The translations under genes were made by a program, and so were the position numbers. The notes beneath the pieces are model-generated. The model was not told where the DNA came from. It made no database searches and saw only the letters and a list, made by a program, of their open reading frames with translations. Positions 1,025 to 37,700 of a DNA stretch of 48,576 nucleotides are shown here, piece by piece; positions within the stretch are counted from its first letter, which is position 1, and every line of letters starts with the position of its first letter. Location: positions 1 through 48,576 of the forward strand of contig CACWKU010000008.1 in assembly GCA_902761575.1 (NCBI GenBank). Reading direction: 5' to 3'. The stretch comes from an uncultured bacterium (GTDB lineage Bacteria > Verrucomicrobiota > Kiritimatiellia > RFP12 > UBA3636).

Positions 1025-5422
<4,398 letters not shown>

Positions 5423-5432
5423 GGGAGGAGGG

Positions 5433-5493
5433 GGTTGAAACGGTTGAAGGGGTTGAAACGGTTGAAGAGGTTGAAGAAGTTGAAAGGTTGAAG
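5433..5493 (-). repeat. tandem 9-mer array (GGTTGAARN) in the purL 5' leader
   Basis: GGTTGAAAC GGTTGAAGG GGTTGAAAC GGTTGAAGA GGTTGAAGAA GTTGAAAG GTTGAAGC lies directly upstream of the purL ATG (5422). On the coding strand it reads CTTCAACC-type and is G-poor. Confidence 0.9.
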
Positions 5494-5541
5494 CGAAAGG
5501 AGGGAAAGGGAGGCCGAGGGGTGCGTTCGGGAATGCGCGGG

Positions 5542-5570
5542 AGTATACCGCAACGCCCGCGTGCGCACAA
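5542..5570 (-). promoter_or_regulatory. candidate sigma70-type promoter for purL
   Basis: On the minus strand, TTGTGC (5565-5570) is followed by a 17-nt spacer and then TATACT (5542-5547). The repeat-containing leader would be about 110 nt. Confidence 0.35.
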
Positions 5571-5594
5571 GCGCCCGCGGGACCGGCAAATCGG

Positions 5595-5623
5595 TTGTCA
5601 TGTCGCGCACAGTCTGCTAAAGT
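5595..5623 (+). promoter_or_regulatory. candidate sigma70-type promoter for the GH9 gene
   Basis: TTGTCA (5595-5600), 17-nt spacer, TAAAGT (5618-5623). It lies about 45 nt upstream of the ATG at 5672. Confidence 0.4.
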
Positions 5624-9187: not shown

Positions 9188-9268
9188 GGTTCGAAGGTTC
9201 GAAAGTTCAAAGGTTCGAAGGTTCGAACGATTCAACCCTGGAACCTTCGAACCTTGGAACCTTGGAAC
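9188..9268. repeat. self-complementary tandem array built on GGTTCGAAG / CCTTCGAACC
   Basis: GGTTCGAAGGTTCGAAAGTTCAAAGGTTCGAAGGTTCGAACGATTCAACCCTGGAACCTTCGAACCTTGGAACCTTGGAAC fills the gspG-GT2 intercistronic gap. The two halves are mutually complementary. Confidence 0.85.
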
Positions 9269-11044: not shown

Positions 11045-11062
11045 GGTCGGAAGGGGCGGGAG

Positions 11063-11125
11063 GGTCCGGATGGTTCGGATGGTCCGGATGGTCGGGATGG
11101 TCCGGATGGTCGGGTGGTCGGGTGG
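11063..11125 (-). repeat. tandem 9-mer array (GGTCCGGAT-type) in the purB 5' leader
   Basis: GGTCCGGAT GGTTCGGAT GGTCCGGAT GGTCGGGAT GGTCCGGAT GGTCGGGT GGTCGGGTGG lies 19 nt upstream of the purB ATG. The coding strand reads ATCCGGACC-type. Confidence 0.9.
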
Positions 11126-22431: not shown

Positions 22432-24345
22432 ATGAAACCCTTCCTCCATTCGCCGCGTAGCGGCGCCCATCATTCGGCGCGAAGCGCCGCCCTCCATTCG
22501 GCGGCAACGCCGCCCTTCATTCGCGCCATAGGCGCGTCCTTCATTCGCGCCATAGGCGCGCCCTTCATTCGCGGCGTAGCCGCGCCCTTCATTCGCCGCG
22601 TAGCGGCGCTCTTCATTCTCTGCGCGGCCGCGCCCCGCGCGGCCGCGCAGTGCGCCGCGCAGGGCGTCACGCTCAAGCCCGGCTGGAACGCCGTCTACGT
22701 CGAGGTCTCGCCCGAGGCGGACGCCACCGCGGTCTTCGGGCCGTGGCCGGTCGACTCGGTCGGCGTCTACGACCCGGCCTCGTTCCTCGCCACGCGCCAG
22801 TTCTCGGCGGACGGCGGGTCGGACGGCCTCGTCTCGTCGCCCATCTTCATGTGGAACCGCGAGTACCCCGAGGCGACGTCCGTCACGCGCGTCCCCGCGG
22901 GCGTGGTCTGCCTCTGCTTCAACACGAACCTCGCGAGCGGGGCGGAGGGGACGTTCTCGACGAACCTCGTCGGCGTCCCCGCCGCGCCGCGCACGACGTG
23001 GCACCGCAGCGAGGGCGGCGAGGTGCTCAACTACTTCGGCTTCTCGGTGCGCCCCGGCGCGGCGGTCGCGCCCGGCGCCTACCTCGCCGGCTTCGGCGAC
23101 CTGGCGGGCGGCTCGCTGCTGCGCATCGGCGGCAAGCGGCGCGAGGACCCGCCCTCGCGCCTGCCGGTCTACTCGAACGACACGGTCTCGGACGGCGAGG
23201 TGCTGCTCGTCGGCGCGACGGCGCCCTCGGACTGGTCCGGCGCGCTGTACGTCTCGCCGATGGACGGCCTCGACTTCGGCACCAACGCGACGCTCCGCAC
23301 GCTCTCGGTCCGCAACGACGGCGGCGCGCCGCGCACGGTCTCGCTGAAGCTGGACCGCGCCGTCGCGGAGCTCGACGCCCGCCTGCCCTTCGGCCCGGCG
23401 CTGCTCGTCTGGCGCGACGCGGACGTCGCCCGCACGAACGCCGCGTGGAACGCGCTCGAGGGCTTCGGCGCGTTCGCCTCGAAGCGCCTCGCCGCCGGCG
23501 AGACGTGGCGCCTGCAGTTCGGCCTCGACCGCGCGAGCGTCCCCGCCGGGCTCGTGCAGGGCATTCCCTTCGGCGCGCTCCTCACGGCGCTCGACGACGA
23601 CGGCGGCTCGCAGATGAAGGCGACCGTCCCGCTGCGCGCGGAGACGAGCGGCGCGGACGCCGCGCGCACCGCCTGGCCCTCCGGGCTGTGGATCGCCGAC
23701 GTCGCGCTCGACACGGTGGACTTCGCCTCCGCCGAGAACCCCGCCCCCGCGGGCGGCGTCCTCAAGCTGCGCCTCCCGCTGCACGTCGACGCGGAGGGCA
23801 AGGTCCGGCTGCTGCAGCGCGTCGTCGCCGCGGGCGAGGCCGACGCCGCCGGCAACCTCGCCTACCGCCTCTACGCGGGCGAGGCCGAGCCGCCCGCCAC
23901 CGCGTCGCAGGCGCTGCGCATCTCCTCGGCCGTGCTGCCGACCGAGACGCCGGTCGTCGAGGCCTCGTTCGCCGACTTCTCGTCCGCGATCGGCATCGCG
24001 ACGTTCCAGTTCGAGGTGGCGGCGGACGGCGCCACGAGCCTCCTGCGCCACCCCTACCATCCGCAGCACGACGGCCTGCGCTGGGACTTCTCCACGCCGG
24101 CGCCATCCGGCGATTTCATCGACAACTACAAGGGCGAGGTAAAGCCCGAGACCTTCTCCGTGAAGAACACGCTCATGCTGTCGTTCGACTTCGGCGCGGG
24201 CGCCTCGCGCTGGGACCCGCAGGACGCCGTCTCCGGCTCCTGCTGGTGGAGATTCTCGGGCCTCCGCCGCGAAGGCGACCTCGTCGCCTCCGGCCCCCTC
24301 TCCCTGAAGCGCGTCTCCGCCCTCTCGGAAATCGTCCTCGAATAA
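22432..24345 (+). CDS. secreted hypothetical protein (637 aa) with hairpin-array leader
   Basis: It starts 14 nt after the serpin stop. The N-terminus is the translated repeat array and ends in RRVAALFILCAAAPRAAAQ. The mature part is unassigned and contains HPYHPQHDGLRWDF. Confidence 0.6.
   Translation: MKPFLHSPRSGAHHSARSAALHSAATPPFIRAIGASFIRAIGAPFIRGVAAPFIRRVAALFILCAAAPRAAAQCAAQGVTLKPGWNAVYVEVSPEADATAVFGPWPVDSVGVYDPASFLATRQFSADGGSDGLVSSPIFMWNREYPEATSVTRVPAGVVCLCFNTNLASGAEGTFSTNLVGVPAAPRTTWHRSEGGEVLNYFGFSVRPGAAVAPGAYLAGFGDLAGGSLLRIGGKRREDPPSRLPVYSNDTVSDGEVLLVGATAPSDWSGALYVSPMDGLDFGTNATLRTLSVRNDGGAPRTVSLKLDRAVAELDARLPFGPALLVWRDADVARTNAAWNALEGFGAFASKRLAAGETWRLQFGLDRASVPAGLVQGIPFGALLTALDDDGGSQMKATVPLRAETSGADAARTAWPSGLWIADVALDTVDFASAENPAPAGGVLKLRLPLHVDAEGKVRLLQRVVAAGEADAAGNLAYRLYAGEAEPPATASQALRISSAVLPTETPVVEASFADFSSAIGIATFQFEVAADGATSLLRHPYHPQHDGLRWDFSTPAPSGDFIDNYKGEVKPETFSVKNTLMLSFDFGAGASRWDPQDAVSGSCWWRFSGLRREGDLVASGPLSLKRVSALSEIVLE
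22441..22650 (+). repeat. mini-hairpin tandem array A1 (7-8 units of ~24 nt) plus 13-bp terminal hairpin
   Basis: Units are of the type CCTTCATTCGCGCCATAGGCGCG and CCTTCATTCGCCGCGTAGCGGCG. The terminal hairpin is CTGCGCGGCCGCG ccccg CGCGGCCGCGCAG at 22620-22650. Confidence 0.9.
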
Positions 24346-24389: not shown

Positions 24390-25475
24390 ATGAAAACCAC
24401 CATTCCTCATTGCCGCGAAGCGGACCGTCATTCGGCGGCGACACCGCCGCCCTTCATTTGCGGGGACGCCGCACCCTTCGTTCGCCGCGCAGCGGCGTTC
24501 GTCATTGCCGCGCTTGCGGCCTCGGCCGCAAGCGCGGCCGGCTTCCGCGCGGCGCCCGTCGCCGAATTCAAGGAAGGTGCCCTCTCCTTCGGACTCTCCG
24601 CCGGAACGACGTTCGTCGGCGGCGAGGCCCGCGAGCACGTCTTCCATCCGAAGGGGTATTTGTCCGACTATCTGGAGGAAATCCCCGGCGCGCCCGCGGA
24701 AGACCGCCGCCACCAGCTCTCCCGTCTCGACTGGGACATGGCCTCCGTCCTCGTGGGCGTCTCCGGATCCCTCCGCTACGACCGCCTCTCGCTCAACCTC
24801 GGCATCTGGTACGGCGGCAGCGGCTCCGACGACTACGACATGAAGGACTACGACTGGATGGCGGGCGACCACGTCCCCCATACCGAGTACTCCCGCTCCG
24901 ACACGGAGCTCACCGACGCCTGGCTGTTCGACGCCAACGTCTCCTTCGACTTCTGGCGCTCCGAGGGCTTCACGGGCTACGTCTTCGCCGGCGCGCGCGA
25001 GCAGCGCTGGAAGTGGACCTGCGACGGCCGCACCGACTACTGGTACACCGAGAACGGCCACGTCTGGGAGCACGAGGACGGCCACATCTGCGACTACCGC
25101 CAGGTCCTCTTCTTCGGCTACGTCGGCCTCGGCGGAAGCTGGAGGCTGACCGATTCGCTCGGCCTCTCCGCCTACGTCTCCTGGGGCCCAGGCTGGAAGG
25201 GACGCGACCGCGACAACCACATCGGCGCCGAAAAGGACACGCACGACTCGTTCGACTACGATTCCAACGTCTACGCCGCCGGCGTCTCGCTCGACTGGCA
25301 CGTCGCCGAGCGCGCGACCGTCTCCTTCGGCGTCGACTGGCAGAAGGCCACGCTCAACCAGGGGCTCCTCTCCCAATGGGAGTACGGCTCCGACGAGACC
25401 GAGGAGATGCCCGACTCCGCCGGCATGGAGAACGAGTACCTCTCCTTCACCGTCGGCCTCGACTACGCCTTCTAG
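24390..25475 (+). CDS. omptin-family outer-membrane protease (peptidase A26)
   Basis: It aligns by eye along its whole length to OmpT/Pla: SRLDWDM, KDYDWMAGD (the Asp-x-Asp catalytic pair), ICDYRQVLFFGYVGLGGSWR, RDRDNH (the Asp-x-His pair) and the C-terminal ENEYLSFTVGLDYAF. Confidence 0.85.
   Translation: MKTTIPHCREADRHSAATPPPFICGDAAPFVRRAAAFVIAALAASAASAAGFRAAPVAEFKEGALSFGLSAGTTFVGGEAREHVFHPKGYLSDYLEEIPGAPAEDRRHQLSRLDWDMASVLVGVSGSLRYDRLSLNLGIWYGGSGSDDYDMKDYDWMAGDHVPHTEYSRSDTELTDAWLFDANVSFDFWRSEGFTGYVFAGAREQRWKWTCDGRTDYWYTENGHVWEHEDGHICDYRQVLFFGYVGLGGSWRLTDSLGLSAYVSWGPGWKGRDRDNHIGAEKDTHDSFDYDSNVYAAGVSLDWHVAERATVSFGVDWQKATLNQGLLSQWEYGSDETEEMPDSAGMENEYLSFTVGLDYAF
24403..24538 (+). repeat. mini-hairpin tandem array A2 (~5 units) plus 15-bp terminal hairpin
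   Basis: Unit examples are TTCCTCATTGCCGCGAAGCGG and CCTTCGTTCGCCGCGCAGCGGCG. The terminal hairpin is GCCGCGCTTGCGGCC tc GGCCGCAAGCGCGGC at 24507-24538. Confidence 0.9.
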
Positions 25476-26397: not shown

Positions 26398-28578
26398 TTG
26401 AACACGTCCGTCCTCCGTCATTGCCGCGAAGCGGCCCCGTCATTCGCGCCGCGCAGCGTCGCGATGTCATTGCGCCGCGCAGCGGCGCTCGTCATTGCCG
26501 CGCTTGCGGCCTCGGCCGCAAGCGCGGCCGCGCCGGTCACCCTCGCGCCGATGTTCCGCGACCACGCCGTTTTGCAACGGGACGTCCCCGTCCCGATCTG
26601 GGGAACGGCGGAGCCGGGGGCAAAGGTCGCGGTCCGACTCGTCCGTGCGGACGAGTCGGACGCGGAACCATGCGAAATGACGGCGACGGTCGGCGAGGAT
26701 GGACGCTGGCGCGTCGAGCTTCCGCCGCATCCCGCTGGCGGTCCTTACGAGCTCGGCGCAGCCGAGCTCCCCCATGCCCTCGGCGCCGCGTCCGCGCCGG
26801 ACGGCGCGGGCGCGCGCGCCGAGGACATCCTCATTGGCGATGTCTGGCTCTGCTCCGGCCAGTCGAACATGGACATGAACTACGGCTGGGGGCTCACGCG
26901 CGGGAAGGAGGACATCGAGACGAACGTGCACGCGAGGATCCGCCTCTTCGACGACCGCAACCGCACCGCGCTCTCGCCGCAGCGCGACCTGCCGGACGAC
27001 TACGGCTGGACGACCTGCGACCCCGCGCACGCAAAGTCCTTCTCCGCCGTCGGCTACTTCTTCGGGCAGGCGCTGCAGGAGGCGATGCCCGACGTCCCGA
27101 TCGGCCTCGTCGAGGCGTCCTGGTCCGGCTCGCCCATCAAGACCTGGATTCCCTACGAGGCCGCCGAGGCCCTCGGCGGCGATTTCGGCAAGCAGGCCGG
27201 CGAGCGCCGCGCCATCGCGGAGGCGTGGGAGAACGGCGGCGCCGAGCAGTTCAAGGTCGACCTCGCCGCGTGGATGGAAAAGCTGCCCGCAATCGACCCC
27301 GGCGACGCCCCCGCCGCGCCGGACTTCGACGATTCGGACTGGCAGACCGCCAACCTTCCCGAAATCACCGAGAAGCACACCAAGCCCGACTTCGACGGTT
27401 GGGTATGGTATCGCAGGACGTTCGTGATCGACGAAGAGGAGCATCCGGTCGTCGACACGGCCTCGCTTTCGCTCGGCCCCATCGACGACCAGGATTGGAC
27501 CTATGTCAATGGCGTTCTCGTCGGCACGACCAATGTGTGGGACGCACCTCGCGACTACAAGATTCCGGAAGGCGTCCTGCATTCCGGAACCAACACAATC
27601 GCGGTCAAGGTCCTCGACTGGGGCGGACACTCCGGATTCTGGAAGAACGCCCCCGCCGGCATGTCCGTATCGGTTTCGTTGGCGCAAGACGAAATCGTCA
27701 CCGAAGAATGCATCGTCGAAAGCAGTAGCACACGCACCATCCCCCTCGCCGGCGAATGGAAGTTCAAGGCGTTCCCGGCGGAGCCGCGGCCGGTGGACCC
27801 GTCGTCGCCGTCGTCGTGGGACATCGCCGCGTGCCACAACGGCATGGTGGCGCCGCTCTTCGGGATGGCGGCGAAGGGGGCGATCTGGTACCAGGGCTGC
27901 TCGGACGTCGGGCACGCGGACCTCTACGCGAAGCAGTTCCCGGCGATGGTCGGCGCGTGGCGCGAGGGCTTCGTGCACGACGACGCGGGCTTCCCGGTCT
28001 ACCTCGTGCAGCTCGCGGCGTTCAAGGAGGCGCACACGGAGCCGCTGGACTCCGCGTGGGCGCGGATGCGCTGGACGCAGATGCGGCTCGGCGAAACCGT
28101 CCCGCACTGCGGCACCGCCGTCGCGATCGACGTCGGCGACCACCGCGACATCCACCCCAAGGACAAGAAGACCGTCGGCGAGCGCCTCGCCGCTCTCGCG
28201 CTTGCGCAGACCTATGGTCGGGAAGGCCGGTCATTGAGCCCCGTGCCGTCGCAGGCGAGCTACGATTGGGCGGCGGGACACGTCATGATCCAATTCGTCG
28301 ACCCCGTATCCCTCAAGCCGGCGAAACTGCGAGAGGATTTCGACCTTCGCGGCTTCCAGGTTTTCATCGATGGCGGCGACTGGAAATGGGCGGAGAAGTC
28401 GTTCGTCAACGAAAAGATGTTCCCCGACACCGTGTTCGTGGACTGTCCCGGCGGAGTCCACACAAATGTTTGTGTCCGCTACGCGTGGGACGACTACCCC
28501 GACTGCAACCTCGTTTCCGCCGACGGCCTTCCCGTCGGCCCGTTCGAGCTGAAGGCGAAAATCCTCGATCTCAAATAG
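26398..28578 (+). CDS. sialate O-acetylesterase-like carbohydrate esterase with inserted galactose-binding-like domain
   Basis: The motif GDVWLCSGQSNM is typical of the 9-O-acetylesterase family. The segment DDSDWQTANLPE...WVWYRRTF is typical of a sugar-binding jelly roll. The track start is TTG. An in-frame ATG at 26464 would give MSLRRAAALVIAALAASAASA. Confidence 0.8.
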   Translation: MNTSVLRHCREAAPSFAPRSVAMSLRRAAALVIAALAASAASAAAPVTLAPMFRDHAVLQRDVPVPIWGTAEPGAKVAVRLVRADESDAEPCEMTATVGEDGRWRVELPPHPAGGPYELGAAELPHALGAASAPDGAGARAEDILIGDVWLCSGQSNMDMNYGWGLTRGKEDIETNVHARIRLFDDRNRTALSPQRDLPDDYGWTTCDPAHAKSFSAVGYFFGQALQEAMPDVPIGLVEASWSGSPIKTWIPYEAAEALGGDFGKQAGERRAIAEAWENGGAEQFKVDLAAWMEKLPAIDPGDAPAAPDFDDSDWQTANLPEITEKHTKPDFDGWVWYRRTFVIDEEEHPVVDTASLSLGPIDDQDWTYVNGVLVGTTNVWDAPRDYKIPEGVLHSGTNTIAVKVLDWGGHSGFWKNAPAGMSVSVSLAQDEIVTEECIVESSSTRTIPLAGEWKFKAFPAEPRPVDPSSPSSWDIAACHNGMVAPLFGMAAKGAIWYQGCSDVGHADLYAKQFPAMVGAWREGFVHDDAGFPVYLVQLAAFKEAHTEPLDSAWARMRWTQMRLGETVPHCGTAVAIDVGDHRDIHPKDKKTVGERLAALALAQTYGREGRSLSPVPSQASYDWAAGHVMIQFVDPVSLKPAKLREDFDLRGFQVFIDGGDWKWAEKSFVNEKMFPDTVFVDCPGGVHTNVCVRYAWDDYPDCNLVSADGLPVGPFELKAKILDLK
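26411..26528 (+). repeat. mini-hairpin tandem array A3 (~4 units) plus 15-bp terminal hairpin
   Basis: Its last 42 nt (26489-26530) are identical to 24499-24540, and it has the same terminal hairpin at 26497-26528. Confidence 0.9.
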
Positions 28579-28793: not shown

Positions 28794-29888
28794 ATGAATA
28801 CTCCCGCCATCCGTCATTGCCGCGCAGCGGCCCCTTCATTCGCCGCGAAGCGGCGCCCTTCATTCGCCACGAAGTGGCGGTCGTCATTCGTCCTTGCGGC
28901 GGCGCTTTGCGCGCTGGCGCAAAGCGCCGCCGCCGCGGACGTCTCCTTCGCCTACCAGGGCGTGCTGCGCGCCGACGACGGCGGCGCGCTCCCCGAACGC
29001 AACCAGACGGTCGAGTTCCGCCTCTACGACAGCCCCGACGGCGAGACCGCGCTCTGGGGGCGCACGGTCGCGGTGCTGCTCGACGAAAACGGGCTCTTCA
29101 ACGCCGAGCTCTCCGACTCCGCCGGCTCGACGGCCCCGGGCGCCCCGGGCACCGGGCTCGCCGGCGTCTTCGCCGCGAACGCGGACAAGTCGCTCTTCGT
29201 CGGCCTCACGGTCGTCGGGACGAGCGGCGAGATCGCGCCGCGCCAGAAGATCCTCCCCGTGCCCTACGCGGTCTTCGCCTCCGACGTCGCGTCCGCGAGC
29301 GGCGACTTCGCCGCGGCCGGCGTCCTCACCGCGGCCTCCGCGACGTTCTCGGGCGGCGTCTCGGCCGCCTCGCTCGACGTCGCCGGCTCCGTCGCGGCCT
29401 CGTCGCTCTCCGTCACGGGCGACGCGACCGTCAACGGCGACCTGCAGGTCGGCGGCGCGGTCTCCGGCTTCGGCACGGTCCCGCTGGAGTGCATCATCCT
29501 GTGGAGCGGCTCCGCGGACGACATCCCGAACGGCTGGGCGCTCTGCAACGGCCAGACCGTCAACGGGCACACGACCCCCGACCTGCGCAACCGCTTCGTC
29601 GTCGGCGCCGGCACGGGCTCGCAGTACACGGTCGGCGAAACGGGCGGCGAGGAGAAGCACACGCTCTCGGAGAGCGAGATGCCGTCGCACTCGCACACCT
29701 ACGACTTCAAGGGCGCGGACTTCAAGGGCGCGTGGGACGACGACAACTACGTCTACGACGCATCCGGGCACTACAAGGACAGGTCCCAGAACGACAACCG
29801 GCGGACCACCAACTCGACCGGCGGCGGCGCCGCCCACGAGAACCGCCCGCCGTACTACGCGCTGTGCTACATCATGCGCGTCCGCTAG
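28794..29888 (+). CDS. secreted tail-fibre-like protein with C-terminal phage tail collar domain
   Basis: ORF 28743..29888 was trimmed to MNTPAIRHC. The N-module is FAYQGVLRADDG...VEFRLYDS...ALWGRT...PRQKILPVPYAVFA. The collar motifs are IPNGWALCNGQ, TPDLRNRFVVGAG, MPSHSHTY and HENRPPYYALCYIMR. Confidence 0.85.
   Translation: MNTPAIRHCRAAAPSFAAKRRPSFATKWRSSFVLAAALCALAQSAAAADVSFAYQGVLRADDGGALPERNQTVEFRLYDSPDGETALWGRTVAVLLDENGLFNAELSDSAGSTAPGAPGTGLAGVFAANADKSLFVGLTVVGTSGEIAPRQKILPVPYAVFASDVASASGDFAAAGVLTAASATFSGGVSAASLDVAGSVAASSLSVTGDATVNGDLQVGGAVSGFGTVPLECIILWSGSADDIPNGWALCNGQTVNGHTTPDLRNRFVVGAGTGSQYTVGETGGEEKHTLSESEMPSHSHTYDFKGADFKGAWDDDNYVYDASGHYKDRSQNDNRRTTNSTGGGAAHENRPPYYALCYIMRVR
28809..28933 (+). 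repeat. mini-hairpin tandem array A4 (~4 units) plus 17-bp terminal hairpin
   Basis: It includes the covarying unit CCTTCATTCGCCACGAAGTGGCG. The terminal hairpin is GCGGCGGCGCTTTGCGC gctg GCGCAAAGCGCCGCCGC at 28896-28933. Confidence 0.9.
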
Positions 29889-29899
29889 CGCGGCCGCTC

Positions 29900-30026
29900 A
29901 TGATGAATGAAGGGTTCCACTGCGCGGAAAATGAAGGGTGCTTCGCAAATGAAGGGTGCGCCTGCGGCGCAAATGAAGGGTCCCGCTTCGCGGGAAATGA
30001 AGGGTGCGGCTGAGCCGCAAATGATG
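29900..30026 (-). repeat. reverse-complement mini-hairpin array (5-6 units) downstream of tail-collar gene 1
   Basis: AATGAAGGG + TGCGCC tgc GGCGCA / TCCCGC ttc GCGGGA / TGCGGC tga GCCGCA. It starts 12 nt after the stop at 29888. Confidence 0.9.
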
Positions 30027-30077
30027 CAGTCAAACAATCCACGCTTTGCAACCATGACACGTTTCTTCGTTGCTTGT

Positions 30078-31487
30078 ATGCATCGCATCCGCTCCTATCA
30101 TTCGCGCGGAGCGCGCCACCCATTTGCCGCGCATCGGCACCCTTCATTCGCGCCAGCGGAGTGTCCTCCATTCACGACGAAGGCGTGCCCTTCATTCGCG
30201 CCAGCGGAGTGCCCTCCATTCACGCCGAAGGCGTGCCCTTCATTCGCGACGCGCAGCGGCGCGCCCTTCATTTGCGGCGGAGCCGCACCCGTCATTCGCG
30301 GCGCAGCCGCGCTCGTCATTGCCGCGGCCGCGACAGCGGCCGCGAGCCCGGCGCCCGCGCCGTGGAGGCAGGCCGACTTCGCGGCCGACCTCTATCGCAA
30401 GGCGGCGTCGGTGCAGCCGGCGGACGAAAACGTCGTGCTGTCGCCGTGGGGCGTGGCGAACCTCTTCGCGCTGCTGCAGACCGGCGCGCGGGGGGACACC
30501 GCTCGCGGCATGGCCTTCGCGCTGCAGCTCGGCGGCGTCGAGCCGCCCGAGCCCGACGCCGTCGCCGCGACGTTCCGCGAGTCGCGCACGAACCTCGAAC
30601 GCGCCGCGAACGACGACGTCGCGCTCGAGCTCTCCGATTCGCTCTGGATCAAGCCCGGATTCGCCCTGTCCGAGAGCTTCCGCTCCCTTGCCCGCGACTC
30701 CTTCGACGCCGACGTCCGCCTCACCTGGATGGGCGCCAAGGGTCGCAAGGAGATCAACGCCTTCGTCGCCGAGAAGACCCACGACCGCATCAAGGACCTG
30801 ATCCAGCCGCCCGTCCTCGACGATCCGCTGACGCGCCTCGTCGCCGTCGACACGGTCTACCTCAAGGCCAAGTGGGAGATCCCCTTCGAGAAGGACGCCA
30901 CGCGCGACCGGACCTTCCACGCGCCGGGCGGCGACGTCGAGGTCCCGTTCCTCCACGACACGCGCCACGCGGAGATCCTCGACGCGCCCGAGTGCGCCGC
31001 GCTGCGGCTCCCGTACCGCTTCGGCTCGGCGGAGATGCTCGTGATCCTGCCGTCGCCCTCCAACACGCTCGCGGAGGTCGAGGCGAAGCTCTCCGGCCCG
31101 TGGCTCGACCGGCTCGCCGCCAAACCGTGGCGGGGCGAGGCCGTCCTCGCGCTCCCGAAGTTCGACTTCGGCAGCGAGCACGACCTGTCGAAGACGCTCC
31201 CGTACATGGGCATGGGCGCCGCGTTCGACCCCGCCCGCGCCGACTTCTCCGGCATCGCGCCGCAGCTCTACATCGGCACCGCCATCCAGAAGGCCAACGT
31301 CACGGTCGACGAAGCCGGCACCGAGGCCGCCGCCGCGACTTTCGCGGTCATGCTGGAAGGGTGCATCGGTCCGATGGAGAACGTTCCGCCCCCGCGCCCG
31401 TTCGTCGCCGACAGGCCGTTCCTCTTCATCATCCGCGAAACCCGCACCGGCCTGATCCTCTTCCTCGGCCGCGTCTGCAAGCCCTAG
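30078..31487 (+). CDS. serpin (inhibitory-type hinge), secreted, with long hairpin-array leader
   Basis: The start was chosen as MHRIRSYHS by analogy with neighbouring leaders; alternatives are 30054 and 29907. Motifs are LSPWGVANLFALL and VDTVYLKAKW. The hinge is DEAGTEAAAATFAV and the end is DRPFLFIIRE. Confidence 0.85.
   Translation: MHRIRSYHSRGARHPFAAHRHPSFAPAECPPFTTKACPSFAPAECPPFTPKACPSFATRSGAPFICGGAAPVIRGAAALVIAAAATAAASPAPAPWRQADFAADLYRKAASVQPADENVVLSPWGVANLFALLQTGARGDTARGMAFALQLGGVEPPEPDAVAATFRESRTNLERAANDDVALELSDSLWIKPGFALSESFRSLARDSFDADVRLTWMGAKGRKEINAFVAEKTHDRIKDLIQPPVLDDPLTRLVAVDTVYLKAKWEIPFEKDATRDRTFHAPGGDVEVPFLHDTRHAEILDAPECAALRLPYRFGSAEMLVILPSPSNTLAEVEAKLSGPWLDRLAAKPWRGEAVLALPKFDFGSEHDLSKTLPYMGMGAAFDPARADFSGIAPQLYIGTAIQKANVTVDEAGTEAAAATFAVMLEGCIGPMENVPPPRPFVADRPFLFIIRETRTGLILFLGRVCKP
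30093..30344 (+). repeat. mini-hairpin tandem array A5 (~10 units, includes a 48-nt higher-order repeat) plus 9-bp terminal hairpin
   Basis: CCTTCATTCGCGCCAGCGGAGTG(T)CCTCCATTCACG(A/C)CGAAGGCGTGC occurs twice. The terminal hairpin is CGCGGCCGC gaca GCGGCCGCG at 30323-30344. Confidence 0.9.
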
Positions 31488-31500
31488 GAGCGAAACTCGT

Positions 31501-34254
31501 ATGAGAACACAAGCAAGAACAACACGTCCCTGCCGCGCAGCGGCCGGCCATTCGGCGGCAATGCCGCCGCCCTTCATTCGCCGCGCAGCGGCGCCCTTCA
31601 TTTGCGGCGGAGCCGCACCCTTCATTCGCCGCGCAGCGGCGCTCGTCATTCTCGCGACGCTGACCGTTTCGGCCCACGCCGAAACGGTCAGCATCGCGAG
31701 CGCCGCCGACTGGGCGGCGTTCGCGGAGCGCGTGAACGCGGGCGAAACGGACCTCTGCGCGGAGATGACCGCCGACGTGACGCTCGGGAACGACGCGCCG
31801 CGCGTCGGAAGTTCGAACTACTTCGGGGGAACCTTCGACGGTCAGGGGCACGCGCTCACGGTCGCGTTCGAGGAGACGGGCGGCTCGGGTTCCGATCGCG
31901 ACCCTCCCTGCGCCCCCTTCGCCTACGTGTGCGGGGCGAGCATCCGGAACCTGCACGTCACCGGAACCATCGCCTCCAACGGCCGTTACGCGGCCGGTTT
32001 CTGCGGTTTCGTGGCCGCCCTGAACGGGACGACCTCGCTTTCGAACTGCCGCTCGTCCGTCTGCGTCGAATGCCGTGTCGACGGCGACGCCACGTCCGCC
32101 GGATTCGTCGGCGCCGTCAAGACGCCCGGCACGCTCCAGATGTCCGACTGCGTCTTCGACGGTTCGATTTGTTCCGGGAGGGGCGTCACGGCCCATTCCT
32201 GCGGCGGGTTCGTCGGCTGGCGCGACGCTTCCGCCTCGGTCTATCTGGGGAGATGCCTGTTCGCTCCGGCGAAGACCAGGGTGGGGACCGACGGAAACGC
32301 CTCGACCTTCGTGCGCGACAACGGCGCCGACGGCCGGAACATCGACGCCTGCCACTATCTCCAGACGCTCGGCGCGGCGCAGGGCGCGAACGCCTCCGCG
32401 ACGTCCGCGGAGGACCTCGCCGCCGCGCTGGGAAGCGACTGGACCGTCGCGGACGGCAAGGTCGTTCTCGCGTCCTTCCCCGGTTCGGTCGAGGTCTACG
32501 ATCCCGATTGGGTCGAGATCTCCTCCGCCGCCGACTGGACCGAGTTCGCCGAATTGGTGAACGCGGGCGAAACGTACCTCTGCGCGAAGATGACCGCCGA
32601 CGTGGCGCTCGGGAACGACGCGCCGCGCGTCGGCACGACGGAGGCCACCGCCTGGACGGGCGAGTTCGACGGCGGCGGACACACGCTCACGGTGGACTGG
32701 ACGTTCACGAAGACGGAATTCGCCGCCCCGTTCGCGATCGTCTCCGGATGCTTCGTCCACGACCTGCACGTCGCCGGATCGATCTCCTCCGACACCAACT
32801 ACGTCGCCGGGTTCGCCGGCTGGGCGAAGCCCGGGGCCCGGTATCCCACGTTCGAACGCTGCCGGTCCTCCGTTGCCCTCACGTGCACGAAGTCCGGCGA
32901 GGTGTGCTGCGGCGGCTTCGTGGGCTACACGTTCTGGGCGGTCTACAACGTCTGCTTCCGGGACTGCCTGTTCGACGGCTCCCTTCTCGGACCGAACGCC
33001 GAACGGTGCGGCGGGTTCGCCGCAAGCCCCTTCGTCGACGCCAACATCGATCTGCACAACTGCCTCTTCGACCCCGCTCAGGTCACGGTTTCGAGCTCAA
33101 TGTCGGGGACCCTCGTGGGCACCCCCTACTCCAGCCACACCTGGGTCGACACGTGCTACTACACCCGGGTCCTCGGCGCGAAGCAGGGCACGGACGCCTC
33201 CGCGATGTCCGAGGAGGACCTCGCCGCCGCGCTCGGCGAGAACTGGATCGTCGCGAGCGGAAAGGTCCTCCCGAAGACGTTCGTCGAGGTCGGCCATCCC
33301 GAGAATGCCGTGGCGGGGTTCGTCTACCAGGGCGCGCTGCGCGACGCGCAGGGGTTCGCGCTCGCGGAGAAGCGCCGGACGGTCGAGATCCGCCTCTACG
33401 CGCAGGCCGCGGGCGGCACCTCGCTCTGGGGCCGGAAGCACGACGTGCTGCTCGACGACGCCGGGCTCTTCCTCGTCCAGCTCTCGGACGACGCCGGCAC
33501 GCCGGTCGACGGCGACCCGGGGACGCCGCTCGCGGACGTCCTCGCGCGGAACGCCGGCGTCCCGCTCTTCGCCGGAGTGACGGTGGCGGGGGCCGGCGCG
33601 GAGATCTCGCCGCGCCAGAAGCTCCTCCCCGCGCCGTTCGCGCTCCTCGCGTCGGATGCCTCCGCCGCGCGCGGCGACTTCGCCGTCGCGGGCGCCCTCT
33701 CCGCGGAGGGGCTGGTCGTCTCGGACGAGCTCGCCGCCCCGTCCGCGCAGATCTCCGGCGCGGCCACCGCCGGGACGCTCGGAACCGCCGGCGGCGTGCG
33801 CGCGGACGGCAACCTGTCGGTCGCGGGCGAGCTCGCGGGCTACGGCACGATCCCCGTCGGCGGCATCGTCGCGTGGAACGGCGCGGAGTCCGCCATCCCG
33901 AACGGCTGGGCGCTCTGCAACGGCCAGACCGCCAACGGGCGCAAGACCCCCGACCTGCGCAACCGCTTCGTCGTCGCCGCGGGCGGGCAGTACAAGGCCG
34001 GCGACACGGGCGGCGAGGACAAGCACAAGCTGACGGTCTCCGAGCTGCCGCCGCACTCGCACACCTACGACTTCAAGGGCGCGGACTTCGACCTCGCGTG
34101 GGACGACGACAACTACATCTACGACGCCTCCGAGCACTACAAGGACAGGCCCCAGAACGCCAACCAGAGGTCCACCAACGCGGCCGGCGGCGACCAGCCG
34201 CACGAGAACCGCCCGCCGTACTACGCGCTTTGCTACATCATGCGCGTCCGCTAG
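31501..34254 (+). CDS. secreted protein: two Cys-rich GLUG-like modules + tail-fibre-like module + phage tail collar domain
   Basis: It starts 13 nt after the serpin stop. Two ~270-aa repeats begin SAADWAAFAERVNAGETDLCAEMTADVTLGNDAPRVG and SAADWTEFAELVNAGETYLCAKMTADVALGNDAPRVG. The C-terminal ~320 aa is paralogous to 28794..29888 and ends identically in HENRPPYYALCYIMRVR. Confidence 0.8.
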   Translation: MRTQARTTRPCRAAAGHSAAMPPPFIRRAAAPFICGGAAPFIRRAAALVILATLTVSAHAETVSIASAADWAAFAERVNAGETDLCAEMTADVTLGNDAPRVGSSNYFGGTFDGQGHALTVAFEETGGSGSDRDPPCAPFAYVCGASIRNLHVTGTIASNGRYAAGFCGFVAALNGTTSLSNCRSSVCVECRVDGDATSAGFVGAVKTPGTLQMSDCVFDGSICSGRGVTAHSCGGFVGWRDASASVYLGRCLFAPAKTRVGTDGNASTFVRDNGADGRNIDACHYLQTLGAAQGANASATSAEDLAAALGSDWTVADGKVVLASFPGSVEVYDPDWVEISSAADWTEFAELVNAGETYLCAKMTADVALGNDAPRVGTTEATAWTGEFDGGGHTLTVDWTFTKTEFAAPFAIVSGCFVHDLHVAGSISSDTNYVAGFAGWAKPGARYPTFERCRSSVALTCTKSGEVCCGGFVGYTFWAVYNVCFRDCLFDGSLLGPNAERCGGFAASPFVDANIDLHNCLFDPAQVTVSSSMSGTLVGTPYSSHTWVDTCYYTRVLGAKQGTDASAMSEEDLAAALGENWIVASGKVLPKTFVEVGHPENAVAGFVYQGALRDAQGFALAEKRRTVEIRLYAQAAGGTSLWGRKHDVLLDDAGLFLVQLSDDAGTPVDGDPGTPLADVLARNAGVPLFAGVTVAGAGAEISPRQKLLPAPFALLASDASAARGDFAVAGALSAEGLVVSDELAAPSAQISGAATAGTLGTAGGVRADGNLSVAGELAGYGTIPVGGIVAWNGAESAIPNGWALCNGQTANGRKTPDLRNRFVVAAGGQYKAGDTGGEDKHKLTVSELPPHSHTYDFKGADFDLAWDDDNYIYDASEHYKDRPQNANQRSTNAAGGDQPHENRPPYYALCYIMRVR
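31526..31700 (+). repeat. mini-hairpin tandem array A6 (~5 units) plus 22-bp terminal hairpin
   Basis: The terminal structure is CTCGCGA c GCTGACCGTTTCGGC ccac GCCGAAACGGTCAGC a TCGCGAG at 31651-31700. That is 15 perfect bp plus 7 more after one mismatch. Confidence 0.9.
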
Positions 34255-34265
34255 CGCGGCCGCGC

Positions 34266-34396
34266 ATGATGAACGAAGGGTGCTTCGCAAATGAAGGGTG
34301 CTTCGCAAATGGAGGGTGCCGCTCCGCGGCAAATGAAGAGTGCGCCTGCGACGCAAATGAAGAGGACTTCGCGAATGAAGGGCGCGTTTCGCGCGA
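34266..34396 (-). repeat. reverse-complement mini-hairpin array (~6 units) downstream of tail-collar gene 2
   Basis: AATGAAGGG/AATGGAGGG/AATGAAGAG spacers alternate with TGCCGC tcc GCGGCA and similar stems. It starts 12 nt after the stop at 34254, in the same junction sequence as at 29888. Confidence 0.9.
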
Positions 34397-34415
34397 ACGG
34401 AAAGAATCGACCGAC

Positions 34416-34781
34416 ATGAAACCGGAAGACGATCCACTGAAAGAGAAGAGCATGGCGTTCGCCGTGTGCGCGGTGAAGCTCGCGAGGTGGCTGCGCGAGG
34501 AGAAAAAGGAGTTCTCCCTCGCCGACCAGATTCTGCGGAGCGGAACCAGCATCGGCGCGAATCTGGCGGAAGCCCGCCACGCCGCGTCGCGCAAGGACTT
34601 TCTCGCGAAGTGCAAGATCTCGCTCAAAGAGTGTTCCGAAACCCTCTTCTGGATCGAACTGCTCGAACGCTCGGACCTTCTTTCCCGCGACCAGGCGAAG
34701 CCCCTTGCTTCCGATTGCAACGACATCCGCCGCCTTCTCGCGGCTTCTTGTAAAACTCTCGAACGGAATCTCCAGCCATGA
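34416..34781 (+). CDS. four-helix-bundle protein (23S rRNA intervening-sequence protein / Avd-like family)
   Basis: 121 aa, MKPEDDPLKEKSMAFAVCAVKLARWL...ADQILRSGTSIGANLAEARHAASRKDFLAKCKISLKECSETLFWIELL. This is the characteristic GANIAEG/SxxDF/ExxYWL pattern. GC is visibly lower than in the neighbours. Its stop overlaps the next ATG (ATGA). Confidence 0.85.
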   Translation: MKPEDDPLKEKSMAFAVCAVKLARWLREEKKEFSLADQILRSGTSIGANLAEARHAASRKDFLAKCKISLKECSETLFWIELLERSDLLSRDQAKPLASDCNDIRRLLAASCKTLERNLQP

Positions 34782-37700
34782 AACTGTCCGACCTGTTCCA
34801 TTCGCCGCGCAGCGGCGCCCTTCATTCGGCGCGGAGCGCCGCCCTTCATTCGGCGGCAACGCCGCCGCCCTTCATTCGCCGCGCAGCGGCGCTCTTCATC
34901 GCGTTGACGGCCGCGACGGCGAGCGAAGCCGCGGATGCCGGATTTACGCTCGGCGTGCCTTCGGCTCCGACCTTGCGGCTGAGCTCCGACGCGGCCGCCA
35001 ACGCCTGGCTTTCGTCCAACGCGCTCTATCCCGCGATGGCGGTCGTGGCGCCGGGCTGGGACGTCGCGACCAACGCCGCGTCGTCCCTGCAGTCCGTCGC
35101 GGGCGAGGAGACCGTGAAGCTCGCCGCCGCCGAGGCCGGCTTCGCGATCGAGCGCACCAAGCCCGAGTACTACCTCGGCGACCTGGTCTCCCCGCCGCCG
35201 CGCGTCGACTGGACCGCCACCTACGAGCGCTTCGTCCGGGACGGCACGGTGGGCTTCCTCTTCGACGCCGCCGGCCAGCGCGTCTACGCCACGCTCGGCG
35301 GAACGGTCCGGTTCACGTGGGTCCTCGAGAACGGCAGCGCGGTCGACATGACCTACGTCGTCTCGTCCTGCTGCTCCGGCCGCCCGCGCCGCATCTACTG
35401 GACGGACCACCCCTACAACGGCCCGCCGATCGACCTGAGCGGCAAGTTCGTGAAGTTCTACGGCCCCGACGAGCTCGTGAAGCCGGCCTACGGCGTCTAC
35501 ACGAACGAGACCGCCGGCATGACCCAGGTCCTCACGAACCGCGTCGTCTCCGGCCTCTACAACGACCCGTCGACCAAGATGCTCTACGCCTACGGCGAGC
35601 TGCAGGGGCAGGTCGTGATGGCCTACTACGACACAGGCACCTTCGAGCGCCTCCTGCACGTGCAGACGGTCGAGATCTGCCGCCCCGTCGTGAACGCGAT
35701 GACGGGCGAGATCGGCCGCCAGCTCAAGCCCGACGGCCGCGGCTACCCGACCGCCGGCCTCCGCGCGCGCCCCACCGTCGTCCAGCCCACGGACGACCGC
35801 GGCGACTACCTCTACCAGCACAAAGGCAAGCATTCCTACAGCCCGAAGAACGGCGCCGTCTTCCCGCTGCGCCCCACCGTCGGCAGCCGCTGGAACGCGG
35901 AGGTGTACTGGATGGAGACCGACGAGATGCTCGTCCAGTGGCCGTTCGAGCTCGACCAGTACGAGTGCGACTGGCCGAAGGACGCCACCGTGTTCGTCCG
36001 CGGCGACCAGGGCGGCGACACGGGCCGCCCGATCTACGTCCCCGACTCCTTCACGCCGACGCTGATGGGCTACCAGGACCCCGAGGGCCACGCCCGCGCC
36101 GTGGAGTCCGACGGCACGTTCCGGACGACCGACGAGGGCTGGTCGCTCCTGAAGCTCGCGGTCGACGACGACGTCTGGTTCGTCCCGCTCCATTCGATCC
36201 TGCGCTCCAACCCCGAGTACTTCACGCTCGAGGAGCAGACGGTCGCCGTCGGCTCCGAGCTGCGCCTCCGCGGCGGCTCGGTCGCCGGCACGGCGGGGAC
36301 GTTCTCGCCCTCCTGCGACCCCGACAGCCCCGGCTACGTCTATCCGCCCGTCTCGGGCGACCACTTCAACCACCGCCTCTACCGCGAGCCGCAGTCGTCC
36401 GCATCCGCGCAGACGAACCAGACCTCGTCCGCCTCCTCCGAGGGCTCCGACACCAACACGTACGCCTCGGTGGTCTACGCGGTCAACGTCGCGGAGAAGC
36501 CGATCGAGGTCTGGTGGAACACGACGATCAAGGAGGAGGGGATGCCCGCCGCGGTCGAGATTCCGACGCTCCCGCAGGTCTACCGCGCGCGCTGGCCGGA
36601 GCTCTGGGAGACGCCTCAGATCGTCATCGCCTCGCAGCAGGGCAGCGCCGCCGAGTCGGTCTATTCGCAGAACCGCGGCCTCTACCTCGACGCGACGAAC
36701 TCCACGGCCATGCTCGCCTCCCGCGCCTATTTCTCCGCCGAAAGCGGGATGGTGCAGCTCTGGATCCGGCCCGACGGCCTCGCGACGGACGACGCCGGCC
36801 GCGCCGTCCTCTCGCTCCACGGCCAGGGCGGGACGAATCTCGTCCTCGACCTGCGCCCGGACCCCGCCGCGGGCGCGACGAACCTCGTCCTTTCGCTGGA
36901 CGGCTCCGGCTCGGTCTCCGTTCCCTTCGAATACCTCCCCGACTTCGGCCTCTGGGTCCCCGTCCAGATCGAGATCGCGCCGGGCGCCGTCGCGCTCCGC
37001 GCCGGCTTCCTCGAGGAGGCCTCCCTCGACGGCGACGCCACGCCGCTGCTCGGCGACGTGGTCGGCGCCGCGCTCGGCGCCTCCGCCGGCGTCGGGGCGC
37101 GCGCCGGCGCCACGGTCGCCGAGATCCTCTTCCGCGCGAAGGCGATCGACGCCGCCGACGCCTTCACCGATGCGTTCGCCGTCCACGAGGGGCGCGAGGT
37201 CGGCCTCACGGGCTGCTACTCGTTCCGCGACACGGACCTGCAGATCGTCCCGGGCTCCGCCGTCCGCGTCTTCACCGACAAGGCGCTCGGCTCGCGCCAC
37301 CGCGCCCTCCGCTGCCTCTCCGAGTCCGACGGTCCGCCGCTCTTCGGCGCGGGCGTGGTCGTCTCCGACGCCGGCACGACGCCGGTCGTCTACGCGCAGA
37401 ACGACCCGGAAGAGCCCGGCTACAACCCGAACGAGGAGCACGGCATCGTGACCGCCGGCTCCGGCGGGCACGTCGCGTGGGCGCTGCGCTCCGACCTCAA
37501 CTCGGACACGTCCTCCGCGCCCGGCGTCCTCGTCGAATACGTCTCGGACGGCCGCAAGGCGATGCGCTGGTTCTCCGTCGCCGTCACCAACTCCCTCTGG
37601 CCCGAACTCGCCGCGCCCTGCACCGCCGGCCTCGCGCTCCCGGGCCCGCACCCGCTCGACACGTTCGACAACCCGTGGAAGAAGGAGACCTACTGGGACG

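Follow-up and report, generated by a model that had tools for sequence, protein, structure and literature searches.

Inverted repeat arrays bracket a four-helix-bundle gene at the start of a giant secreted-protein gene and recur across the PF05635 family

A gene for a four-helix-bundle (4HB) protein lies between two inverted tandem-repeat arrays in a 48,576-nt stretch of DNA from an uncultured bacterium of the Kiritimatiellia (GenBank assembly GCA_902761575.1, contig CACWKU010000008.1; below, the window), and among related strains gene and arrays are gained, lost, exchanged and left to decay together as one unit. In the window this unit occupies the spacer between a gene for a secreted protein with a phage-tail-collar domain (the Collar gene) and a gene for a 2,907-aa secreted protein (the giant gene), where it has replaced the host ribosome-binding site, the start codon and the first part of the signal peptide of the giant gene. 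The 4HB protein belongs to the PF05635 family, and inverted arrays of about 4–5 heptamers with a shared A-R-T-K core bound over half of the PF05635 genes that we sampled, in at least seven phyla. We consider it highly probable that the 4HB gene and its two arrays constitute a cassette or insertion, and we refer to them as the cassette below.

The bracketed gene and the start of the giant gene

The 4HB gene (34416–34781, + strand, GC 0.59) encodes a 121-aa protein without a signal peptide. An initial annotation, made from the sequence alone, had placed this protein in the family known from 23S rRNA intervening sequences (IVSs) and had proposed a structural relationship with Avd, the accessory protein of diversity-generating retroelements (DGRs); both proposals were borne out. 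Residues 9–109 matched the PF05635 profile with an E-value of 6.4e-25 (87.9 bits, cut-off 33.8), TIGR02436 was matched with an E-value of 1.1e-28 (99.6 bits, cut-off 24), and a sequence match was obtained with PDB 2RLD (BT_0352; E 1.2e-28). The AlphaFold model, calculated with 19 relatives as input (pLDDT 93.5), is a single-domain up-down bundle like 2RLD and 2GSC, with four helices spanning residues 7–30, 33–53, 59–85 and 91–119. The model superimposed on 2RLD with TM-scores of 0.86–0.97 and on Xcc0516 (2GSC) with 0.78–0.84; the scores against Avd were 0.75–0.83 for 4DWL and 0.73–0.80 for chain D of the DGR ribonucleoprotein (8UBE/8UB7). The 2RLD and 2GSC crystal structures contain five chains each, whereas the window protein was modelled as a monomer. 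The conserved motif of the PF05635/TIGR02436 family is given as (G)xxRxxxSxxxNxxE in PMC3936711, which cites Lin et al. 2006. The corresponding residues R41, S45, N49 and E52 are invariant or nearly so across 21 relatives, and the first motif position, a glycine in the published version, is occupied by Q38.

The composition of the 4HB gene sets it apart from its neighbours, as the initial annotation had noticed: its GC is 0.593 and its GC at third codon positions (GC3) 0.746, against a GC3 of about 0.92–0.97 in the neighbouring genes and a minimum of 0.86 in any 366-nt window of the giant gene. The low GC is kept in both 4HB lineages described below and in every relative examined, and no relative was found to carry the same gene without arrays and at native GC. 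The 48,576-nt window contains no further 4HB gene or remnant.

The arrays had been placed at 34266–34396 (reverse complement) and 34795–34902 (forward), and these positions were confirmed. The 5' arm (34272–34396, + strand) contains six purine-rich cores of the form AAYGRAGRG (AATGAAGGG-type), starting at 34272, 34290, 34308, 34332, 34356 and 34374, that is, 18 or 24 nt apart with GC-rich spacers between them. The 3' arm (34794–34900, + strand) contains five pyrimidine-rich reverse-complement cores CCCTTCATT, starting at 34794, 34818, 34842, 34868 and 34892, each followed by a hairpin with a 6-bp stem and a 3-nt loop. The period of the forward array is 24 nt, the window contains 27 occurrences of the 11-mer core where chance would give 0.7, and the two arms form an inverted repeat (I1) of 52 nt, 77% complementary, around the 4HB open reading frame (ORF). 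Alignment of 17 units from seven arrays resolved the 24-nt unit into the conserved 9-nt core CCCTTCATT and the 6-bp stem with its 3-nt loop. The hairpin shows strong covariation: 97% of the cells are paired, five of the six pairs have changed on both sides and 19 cells are compensatory, a level reached by 0 of 500 shuffles, and sliding the partner columns lowered the pairing to 17–67%. Each unit is made up of a conserved core, probably single-stranded, and a structural spacer that follows it.

The complementary arms can pair core to core. In the predicted RNA fold of 34255–34915 the arrays pair around the 4HB ORF (minimum free energy -291 kcal/mol, z = -3.1), and the gain from arm-to-arm pairing, after allowing the arms their own hairpins, is -42 kcal/mol compared with -14.6 ± 4.2 kcal/mol for shuffled arms (z = -6.5). 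A second 4HB paralogue, on contig L001, is enclosed by a near-perfect stem of ~45 bp (fold z = -6.8). The stem-flanked, IVS-like architecture described in the initial annotation is upheld, and it proved to be a trait of the PF05635 family as a whole. The identical 4HB protein was recovered from 10 independently assembled contigs, all with the same bracket layout, and the number of 3'-arm copies in other strains is 4, 5 or 1. In a lower-GC relative (L095), whose 4HB protein is 68% identical, the gene order is again Collar-type, 4HB and giant gene; here the arms are plain heptamers (GAATGAA/GAATGAC x6 upstream and TCATTCG/TCACTCG x7 downstream). Because this orthologous cassette has plain heptamers, we regard the 24-nt unit as a derived form in which a heptamer-like core has been joined to a GC hairpin. 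No Rfam family, rRNA included, was matched in the bracket or anywhere in the window; no promoter-like site was detected in the bracket, and terminator-like sites occurred at the chance rate. We also considered the repeat units as translation resets and rejected this possibility, as stops are present in 30 of 45 5'-arm units (29.5 expected) and starts in 16 (16.2 expected).

The upstream Collar gene (31501–34254, + strand; Pfam Collar E 4.4e-6) encodes a 917-aa secreted protein ending in ...PPYYALCYIMRVR. The downstream giant gene (34778–43501, + strand) has no Pfam match in the window, whereas its relatives match Laminin_G_3. In agreement with the initial annotation, the TGA of the 4HB gene (34779–34781) overlaps the ATG of the giant gene (34778) in the sequence ATGA (34778–34781, + strand). 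The C-terminus of the Collar gene precedes the giant gene in relatives whether the cassette is present or not, and the homology of the giant protein to array-free orthologues begins at the mature N-terminus ADAG(F/Y)TLGV, from about 34931. The sequence before this point (34778–34930, + strand) is a cassette-linked 5' module comprising the start codon, an array-encoded part of the signal peptide and its hydrophobic core ...PFIRRAAALFIALTAATASEA. The 3' arm is translated as residues 6–41 of the giant protein, which form the first part of the signal peptide and read, for example, ...LVTRHSSLVTA... or ...PFIRRAAALFIA.... Fifteen of 15 cassettes, drawn from two 4HB lineages, retain the ATGA overlap, and in all of them the ATG stays in frame, without stops, through the whole 3' arm into the mature giant protein, although the differing heptamer copy numbers would be expected to shift the frame. 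Based on this sequence arrangement, translation of the giant gene is likely coupled to that of the 4HB gene.

Such coupling was rejected as a trait of the whole family, since outside the Kiritimatiellae ATGA is present at only 9 of 70 loci and a long ORF runs from that ATG in only four; there the next gene mostly begins just after or within the 3' arm. An ATT in the last repeat unit, which would give a protein beginning I-R-R-AAAL..., was considered as the true start of the giant gene and was dropped, since all 15 cassettes keep the upstream ATG in frame and another gene reads the array in another frame. At one locus (L009:607–670, equivalent to window 34778–34905) the 3' arm is a single repeat unit, which leaves the ATG outside the frame of the mature protein; directly past the TGA, I-R-R-AAALFIALTAATASEA can be read in the 4HB frame. 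This state could mark an 'off' variant or an alternative start, or be an error of assembly.

Turnover at the Collar–giant spacer and brackets across PF05635

To follow the site in other genomes we collected 55 orthologous loci by a metagenome search with residues 55–454 of the giant protein; closer relatives came from exact-protein look-ups and the metagenome scan, and the named relatives are Kiritimatiellae metagenome-assembled genomes, with contig names that suggest an origin in rumen material. Nine loci (L109, L116, L117, L123, L126, L131, L133, L147 and L148) are empty. In these, the Collar stop is followed by about 0–34 nt, mostly holding a GGAGG- or GGGAG-like motif, and then by ATG; arrays are absent, and the signal peptide is short and canonical, as in MKNGLLTLSAASLLPLALCA preceding ADAGFTLG. 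This short empty spacer is likely the ancestral state. A 4HB gene or a fragment of one lies directly 5' of the giant gene in 14 of the 55 loci. An array was found by Tandem Repeats Finder (TRF) in 13 of the 14 cassettes examined, and in all 13 the repeat unit tracks the 4HB lineage and not the host locus: lineage-A genes are accompanied by AATGAAGGG-type units of 18–24 nt and lineage-B genes by GAGTGAC heptamers.

The site has several different occupants among strains with giant genes 94–97% identical to that of the window, the window cassette itself being one of them. One strain (L101) has a lineage-B 4HB gene flanked by (GAGTGAC) x9 and (GTCACTC) x4, its protein being ~55% identical to that of the window, and another (L103) carries a lineage-B cassette in which the 4HB gene is internally deleted. 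Two more (L154 and L155) have only a lone forward 24-nt array behind a different upstream gene. In the fifth (L102) the spacer holds a GxxExxY gene (TIGR04256 E 1.5e-41; PF13366, PD-(D/E)XK fold) with CAGGATT x4 before it and CAGGATT/AATCCTG arrays after it, ATGA-coupled to the giant gene. The 4HB fragments of L103, L132 and L136 represent stages of decay toward empty brackets. The orientation of the 4HB gene relative to both neighbours is uniform in 25 of 25 contigs, and independent samples yielded the key states again (L101 and L103; L154 and L155; L102 and L110). The selfish insertion suggested by the initial annotation thus gains support from empty sites, alternative cassettes in near-identical strains and decayed copies, while the insertion at this site is not a recent one.

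The GxxExxY gene was observed at the Collar–giant spacer twice, at L102:793–1596 and L110:788–1354, with inverted-repeat scores (defined below) of 48 and 43, so that brackets of this kind may serve a second family of small genes as well. At the same spacer in L105 (1254–2372) we found a 372-aa ORF with the HUH-like motif MPDHVHFLV and a weak match, below the cut-off, to the REP-associated tyrosine transposase (RAYT; REP, repetitive extragenic palindromic sequence). Overall, the spacer looks like a hotspot for small selfish genes.

Association of the family with arrays was examined in a scan of GTDB genomes, in which 80 PF05635 loci were listed at 42–53% identity, ranked by similarity and hence not a random sample of the family. 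The loci listed come from at least seven phyla (Bacteroidota, Bacillota, Verrucomicrobiota, Lentisphaerota, Acidobacteriota, Pseudomonadota and Spirochaetota). We scored a bracket by aligning the 200 nt upstream with the reverse complement of the 200 nt downstream and set the threshold at 30 (z above 7 against shuffles). This score was reached by 37 of the 70 testable PF05635 loci (53%) and by 4 of 180 neighbouring control ORFs (2%), and the two distributions differ with a Mann-Whitney p of 2e-14. Of 75 flanks on each side, TRF detected period-7 repeats in 52 upstream (median 4.6 copies) and 41 downstream (median 4.4 copies), and the density of period-7 arrays is 4.3 per kb within 200 nt of the PF05635 ORF, compared with 0.28 per kb elsewhere in the same loci. 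Among arrays elsewhere in these loci, 24 of 42 share the unit of the resident bracket (7.6% expected), and nine are empty inverted pairs.

The units differ between genomes, though not arbitrarily. When 54 units were rotation-aligned, A-R-T-K was present at four consecutive positions in 42–52 of them, without a single C there, and the information content of this core is 4.05 bits, whereas units shuffled internally carry 2.99 ± 0.11. Purines predominate in the 5' arm at 27 loci and pyrimidines at two; this polarity is a property of the bracket and is independent of the strand that carries the gene. The PF05635 genes of other phyla are also mostly co-oriented with their neighbours (42:13 upstream, 47:12 downstream). 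By our estimate about 70% of adjacent bacterial genes are co-oriented, and we therefore judged these counts uninformative.

Other arrays and brackets in the window

The view that the forward array is special to the 4HB gene did not hold, although the bracket around this gene stood: the forward array is also present at the 5' ends of six other + strand genes. A second bracket in the window (29906–30327, + strand) is empty; it consists of five AATGAAGGG units (29906–30019), a spacer of ~75 nt and about nine CCCTTCATT-type units (30094–30327) that lead into the signal peptide of a serpin. Its RNA fold has a z of -7.2, and its arms pair with -59 kcal/mol (z = -8.2). The whole bracket is a single open frame from an ATG at 29907 into the serpin (Pfam E 1.2e-86), to which it contributes an N-terminal extension of ~100 aa. 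We examined the spacer (30020–30100) as a decayed 4HB gene and rejected this, as the similarity was not significant (z = 1.1). A lone forward array of eight units forms the 5' end of a 642-aa gene (22442–22632, + strand), and similar lone arrays are located at 24424–24497, 26414–26459, 28810–28879 and 31570–31665. The last units and the hydrophobic core are 76–82% identical across unrelated genes (24448–24538, 26438–26528 and 30262–30352), which encode an unknown protein, a SASA-type esterase and the serpin; this suggests that array and signal peptide form a portable 5' module common to secreted-protein genes. In addition, the 5' arm of the cassette (34266–34396) can pair in trans with the lone arrays at 22443–22635, 28810–28890 and 31568–31651 at predicted energies of -42 to -55 kcal/mol, a range that includes its own partner, and shared antisense-type control through such pairing is a possibility raised by these models.

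Further short tandem arrays were found at 3372–3404, 5431–5492, 9188–9268 and 43996–44078. The last of these is a lone heptamer array, (TCACTCG) x12 on the - strand and (CGAGTGA) x12 on the forward strand, that ends at the ATG of a gene for a YbaK-like tRNA-editing domain and separates it from an aminotransferase gene; both genes are on the - strand and encode cytoplasmic proteins. Its unit is that of the lineage-B 4HB cassettes, and a 4HB gene is absent there. The purL gene (1028–5623, - strand) carries an in-frame insert of ~230 aa between the AIRS_C and PurM_N-like domains of PurL. Two 8-nt arrays, CGGTCACA x4.6 (3061–3097) and GACCGTGT x4.5 (3479–3514), form an inverted pair within the insert, which also holds GAATGCT x4.7 (3372–3404) and CGTCTSG x4 (3424–3452) and looks like an array bracket (3061–3514) tolerated within a housekeeping gene. 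A GGTTGAA-type array with a period of 9 or 18 nt lies upstream of the start of this - strand gene (5431–5492). The array at 9188–9268, GGTTCGAA x5 followed by AACCTTGG x4.4, fills the entire intergenic spacer by a - strand gene, and GGATGGTCC x6.9 (11043–11125) is located in the N-terminal extension or leader of adenylosuccinate lyase, also on the - strand.

Immediately before the cassette, the Collar stop TAG (34252–34254) sits in the loop of a hairpin with 16-nt arms (34236–34271, + strand; inverted repeat I5, 94% complementary), which is not followed by a T-run. The same hairpin follows the Collar paralogue at 29869–29904, so that both paralogues have their stop codon in the loop, and it is retained in L092:3830–3875 despite changes in both arms (GCGGGTTC / GAACCCGC).

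Known systems, alternative explanations and significance

The closest known counterpart of the cassette is the ORF-bearing IVS of 23S rRNA, as in Leptospira, Coxiella, Brucella and Xanthomonas. In these elements the same protein family is encoded in the loop and terminal repeats of ~30 nt form the stem; in Coxiella a 28-bp terminal stem around the S23p ORF is cut by RNase III (PMC4990558). Stems of ORF-bearing IVSs are ~28 bp in general, the function of S23p is not known and the element, which depends on host transcription as is proposed for the cassette, has long been suspected to be selfish (PMC4990558). Unlike an IVS, the window cassette lies between protein-coding genes, with no rRNA in the window; its arms are tandem arrays, its 3' arm is translated in the next protein and it is probably coupled in translation to a host gene. 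Excision by RNase III is known from Coxiella and other rRNA IVSs. Avd shares the 4HB fold and is itself part of a nucleic-acid–protein complex, and PF05635, to which it is related, is the commonest family near DGR reverse transcriptases (PMC10053308). In contrast to Avd loci, the window locus showed no reverse transcriptase among the 18 large ORFs scanned and no template/variable repeats, the sequence identity is 10–12%, and the window protein has the R-x3-S-x3-N-x2-E motif of the IVS-type branch. Reports have also placed PF05635 within cas loci or described it as 'CRISPR-linked' (PMC3936711, PMC10910872); in such screens the arrays beside the gene may have passed as CRISPR-like.

Heptamer repeats are over-represented in bacteria, an observation that is unexplained. 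Arrays of TAACTGA end at start codons in Beggiatoaceae, cyanobacteria and Bacteroidetes (PMC4679880), and GGGAATC arrays occur in Xanthomonas, where 70 convergent pairs were counted (PMC4692102). These repeats and the cyanobacterial short tandemly repeated repetitive sequences resemble the brackets in their period of 7, their few copies, their intergenic position often ending at a start, their convergent pairs and their length variation between strains (PMC4679880, PMC4692102). They differ in that the arrays described here are tied to a gene as a heritable unit, and the window unit is a 24-nt derivative. Neither article mentions PF05635 or 4HB genes, and we found no published link between PF05635/S23p and heptamer arrays. 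However, supplementary file 2 of PMC4692102 places GGGAATC x4 on the annotated start of XCC0516, the gene of the 2GSC structure, in Xanthomonas campestris ATCC 33913 (622956–622983), 6 nt from bccP/XCC0517, without comment on the gene family.

Mobile elements of other kinds share some of these features. Like MITEs (miniature transposable elements with inverted repeats) and foldback transposons, the cassette has inverted ends of short tandem units and occurs many times per genome in full and in deleted or empty copies (the L103, L132 and L136 fragments and the empty pairs); unlike theirs, its end sequences vary by genome. No transposase was found among the 18 large ORFs scanned, and no target-site duplication was visible against empty sites only 55–74% identical. 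An integron cassette is likewise a small promoter-less ORF that is held in one orientation and relies on host transcription, and its purine-type heptamer core (GTTRRRY) upstream with the inverse downstream is a further likeness, whereas here no integrase was present among the scanned ORFs, there is no attI and the arms are tandem arrays and not a single structured attC. REP sequences and bacterial interspersed mosaic elements (BIMEs) with RAYT are also short GC-rich hairpins repeated between genes with genome-specific units. However, the orientation of REPs alternates, the conserved 9-nt single-stranded core is missing from them, and a RAYT-like ORF was found only in L105, below the cut-off. 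As in phase-variable loci, the repeat number varies (4, 5 or 1), but frame switching was not seen, L009 alone being out of frame.

The explanation that we favour overall, with slightly better than even credence, is that the 4HB gene and its arrays form a selfish, promoter-less-looking element inside operons, similar in kind to the ORF-bearing IVS of 23S rRNA. The element would be transcribed by read-through from the Collar gene, and ribosomes finishing the 4HB gene would restart on the giant gene at the ATGA. In the transcript the arms would close the 4HB ORF into a loop, as in an rRNA IVS, and the closed stem would offer a target to RNase III or another double-strand-specific RNase, mask both start regions, or both. 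The Avd-like protein, pentameric in its solved homologues, would then act on the repeated cores. By analogy with the rRNA elements a stem or processing event at the RNA level is plausible, although we place it somewhat short of even; that the 4HB protein binds its own arrays is a tentative proposal that we would not expect to hold; and we hold it for more speculative still that PF05635 genes, and perhaps GxxExxY genes, are cargo or trans-acting factors of widespread, unrecognised mobile cassettes bounded by inverted arrays of about five A-R-T-K heptamers.

Several observations weigh against this explanation. A clear bracket is absent from about 40–45% of the sampled PF05635 genes, and a model in which any stem would do predicts neither the shared A-R-T-K core nor the fixed arm polarity. 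In L092 the same C.U mismatch recurs in every repeat unit, and the arrays are therefore homogenised within each arm and not between arms. Mismatches between sense-strand arms show no excess of G:U over A:C (36 compared with 31), and we therefore rejected a wobble bias that would have signalled selection on RNA of the sense strand. An RNase III cut in the 3' arm would fall within the coding sequence of the giant gene. The order Collar, 4HB, giant gene is kept in relatives with 4HB proteins 81% and 68% identical; the cassette is therefore old at this spacer, and such persistence could reflect use by the host. No transposase or integrase was identified among the 18 large ORFs scanned, and no target-site duplication is visible, the empty sites available for comparison being only 55–74% identical. 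Recombination between arrays and between Collar paralogues could account for local exchange, and all close relatives are metagenome contigs, which are possibly chimeric at repeats.

Some of these points would suit arms that act at the DNA level, either as the ends of a foldback or MITE-like element or as a hairpin target for replication-linked template switching, with empty brackets as non-autonomous derivatives, the 4HB protein as the factor or a passenger of the element and RNA pairing as a by-product. A single site shows gain, loss and replacement together with decayed and empty copies, the units are genome-specific, the sense strand lacks the G:U bias, the symmetric inverted arrays and their hairpins are present on both strands, and homogenisation within arms is what slippage would give; polymerase slippage is also the cause to which the heptamer excess is ascribed in work cited by PMC4679880 and PMC4692102. 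We nevertheless consider this explanation fairly unlikely: neither a transposase or recombinase among the scanned nearby ORFs nor a target-site duplication was seen, ends are normally conserved within one transposon family whereas the units here vary by genome, the arrays fit closely to start codons and the ATGA coupling is conserved, both of which speak for a role in expression, and the arms, at ~32 nt, are about as long as the 28-bp stem that RNase III cuts in the Coxiella IVS. If the host has instead adopted the 4HB protein as a regulator, a pentamer might wrap about five single-stranded cores, in the manner of TRAP on the trp leader RNA, and compete with arm pairing to set the translation or stability of the giant gene and perhaps of other genes with forward arrays. 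The A-R-T-K core recurring every 7 nt in ~4.5 copies per arm, the retention of cores in the 24-nt form, where covarying hairpins would keep neighbouring cores close, the five chains in crystals of solved homologues and the presence of Avd in an RNA–protein complex with the DGR reverse transcriptase (PDB 8UBE) all accord with such a regulator, as do the gene order and ATGA overlap kept down to 68% identity and the equally good pairing of the 5' arm with lone arrays of three other genes. Near-identical strains, however, lack the gene, carry the other lineage or hold a broken copy, and the 4HB gene is therefore dispensable for the giant gene; most giant-gene orthologues have neither 4HB gene nor arrays, and a bracket of the same kind encloses a GxxExxY gene with a nuclease fold, which makes a host regulator improbable in our judgement.

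A chance association, in which the arrays are leader elements of the host (contingency loci or translation signals of secreted-protein genes) and the 4HB gene merely a neighbour, would account for the lone forward arrays on six other genes of the window and at 43996, for the strain-dependent copy number with one variant (L009) out of frame and for the resemblance to the TAACTGA arrays that immediately precede start codons in Beggiatoaceae, cyanobacteria and Bacteroidetes (PMC4679880). We consider it very unlikely, because the unit tracks the 4HB lineage and not the host gene, orthologues lacking the 4HB gene are mostly array-free, inverted arrays flank 53% of 4HB genes compared with 2% of control ORFs, a 24-nt unit cannot shift the frame, and 15 of 15 starts bearing heptamers or 24-mers are in frame. 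The Avd-like fold (TM-score 0.75–0.83), the frequency with which PF05635, as the commonest Pfam family, accompanies DGR reverse transcriptases (PMC10053308) and the inverted repeats around the gene also raised the possibilities that the 4HB gene is the Avd gene of a DGR or part of an invertible switch flipped between the arrays. Both were rejected and have next to no probability: the 18 large ORFs scanned contain no reverse-transcriptase domain, the window contains no template/variable repeat pair (its long repeats are arrays or paralogous domains), and across the 25 contigs examined the gene never differs in its orientation relative to either neighbour.

The IVS/S23p family of 4HB proteins is large, extends over many phyla and includes solved structures, yet it has been without a function since 1993, Avd being its only characterised relative; the inverted arrays give this orphan family a testable partner. 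Bracketing and co-movement connect it with the unexplained excess of heptamers, including those of Xanthomonas and Beggiatoaceae, and the bracket layout may help to explain the known excess of seven-base repeats in bacterial genomes. The recurring false lead of CRISPR association is plausibly explained by the CRISPR-like look of the flanking arrays. At the giant gene, a putatively selfish insert has taken over signals of its host. If the reading of these units as mobile cassettes is true, the pentamer would recognise the repeated cores of its own cassette in single-stranded RNA or DNA, and empty brackets and lone arrays would be the footprints that cassettes leave behind. The long-noted heptamer excess would then have a biological cause and the IVS/S23p family a function, and in the Kiritimatiellae such footprints would supply 5' modules, each a start and a signal peptide, that are shuffled among secreted-protein genes.

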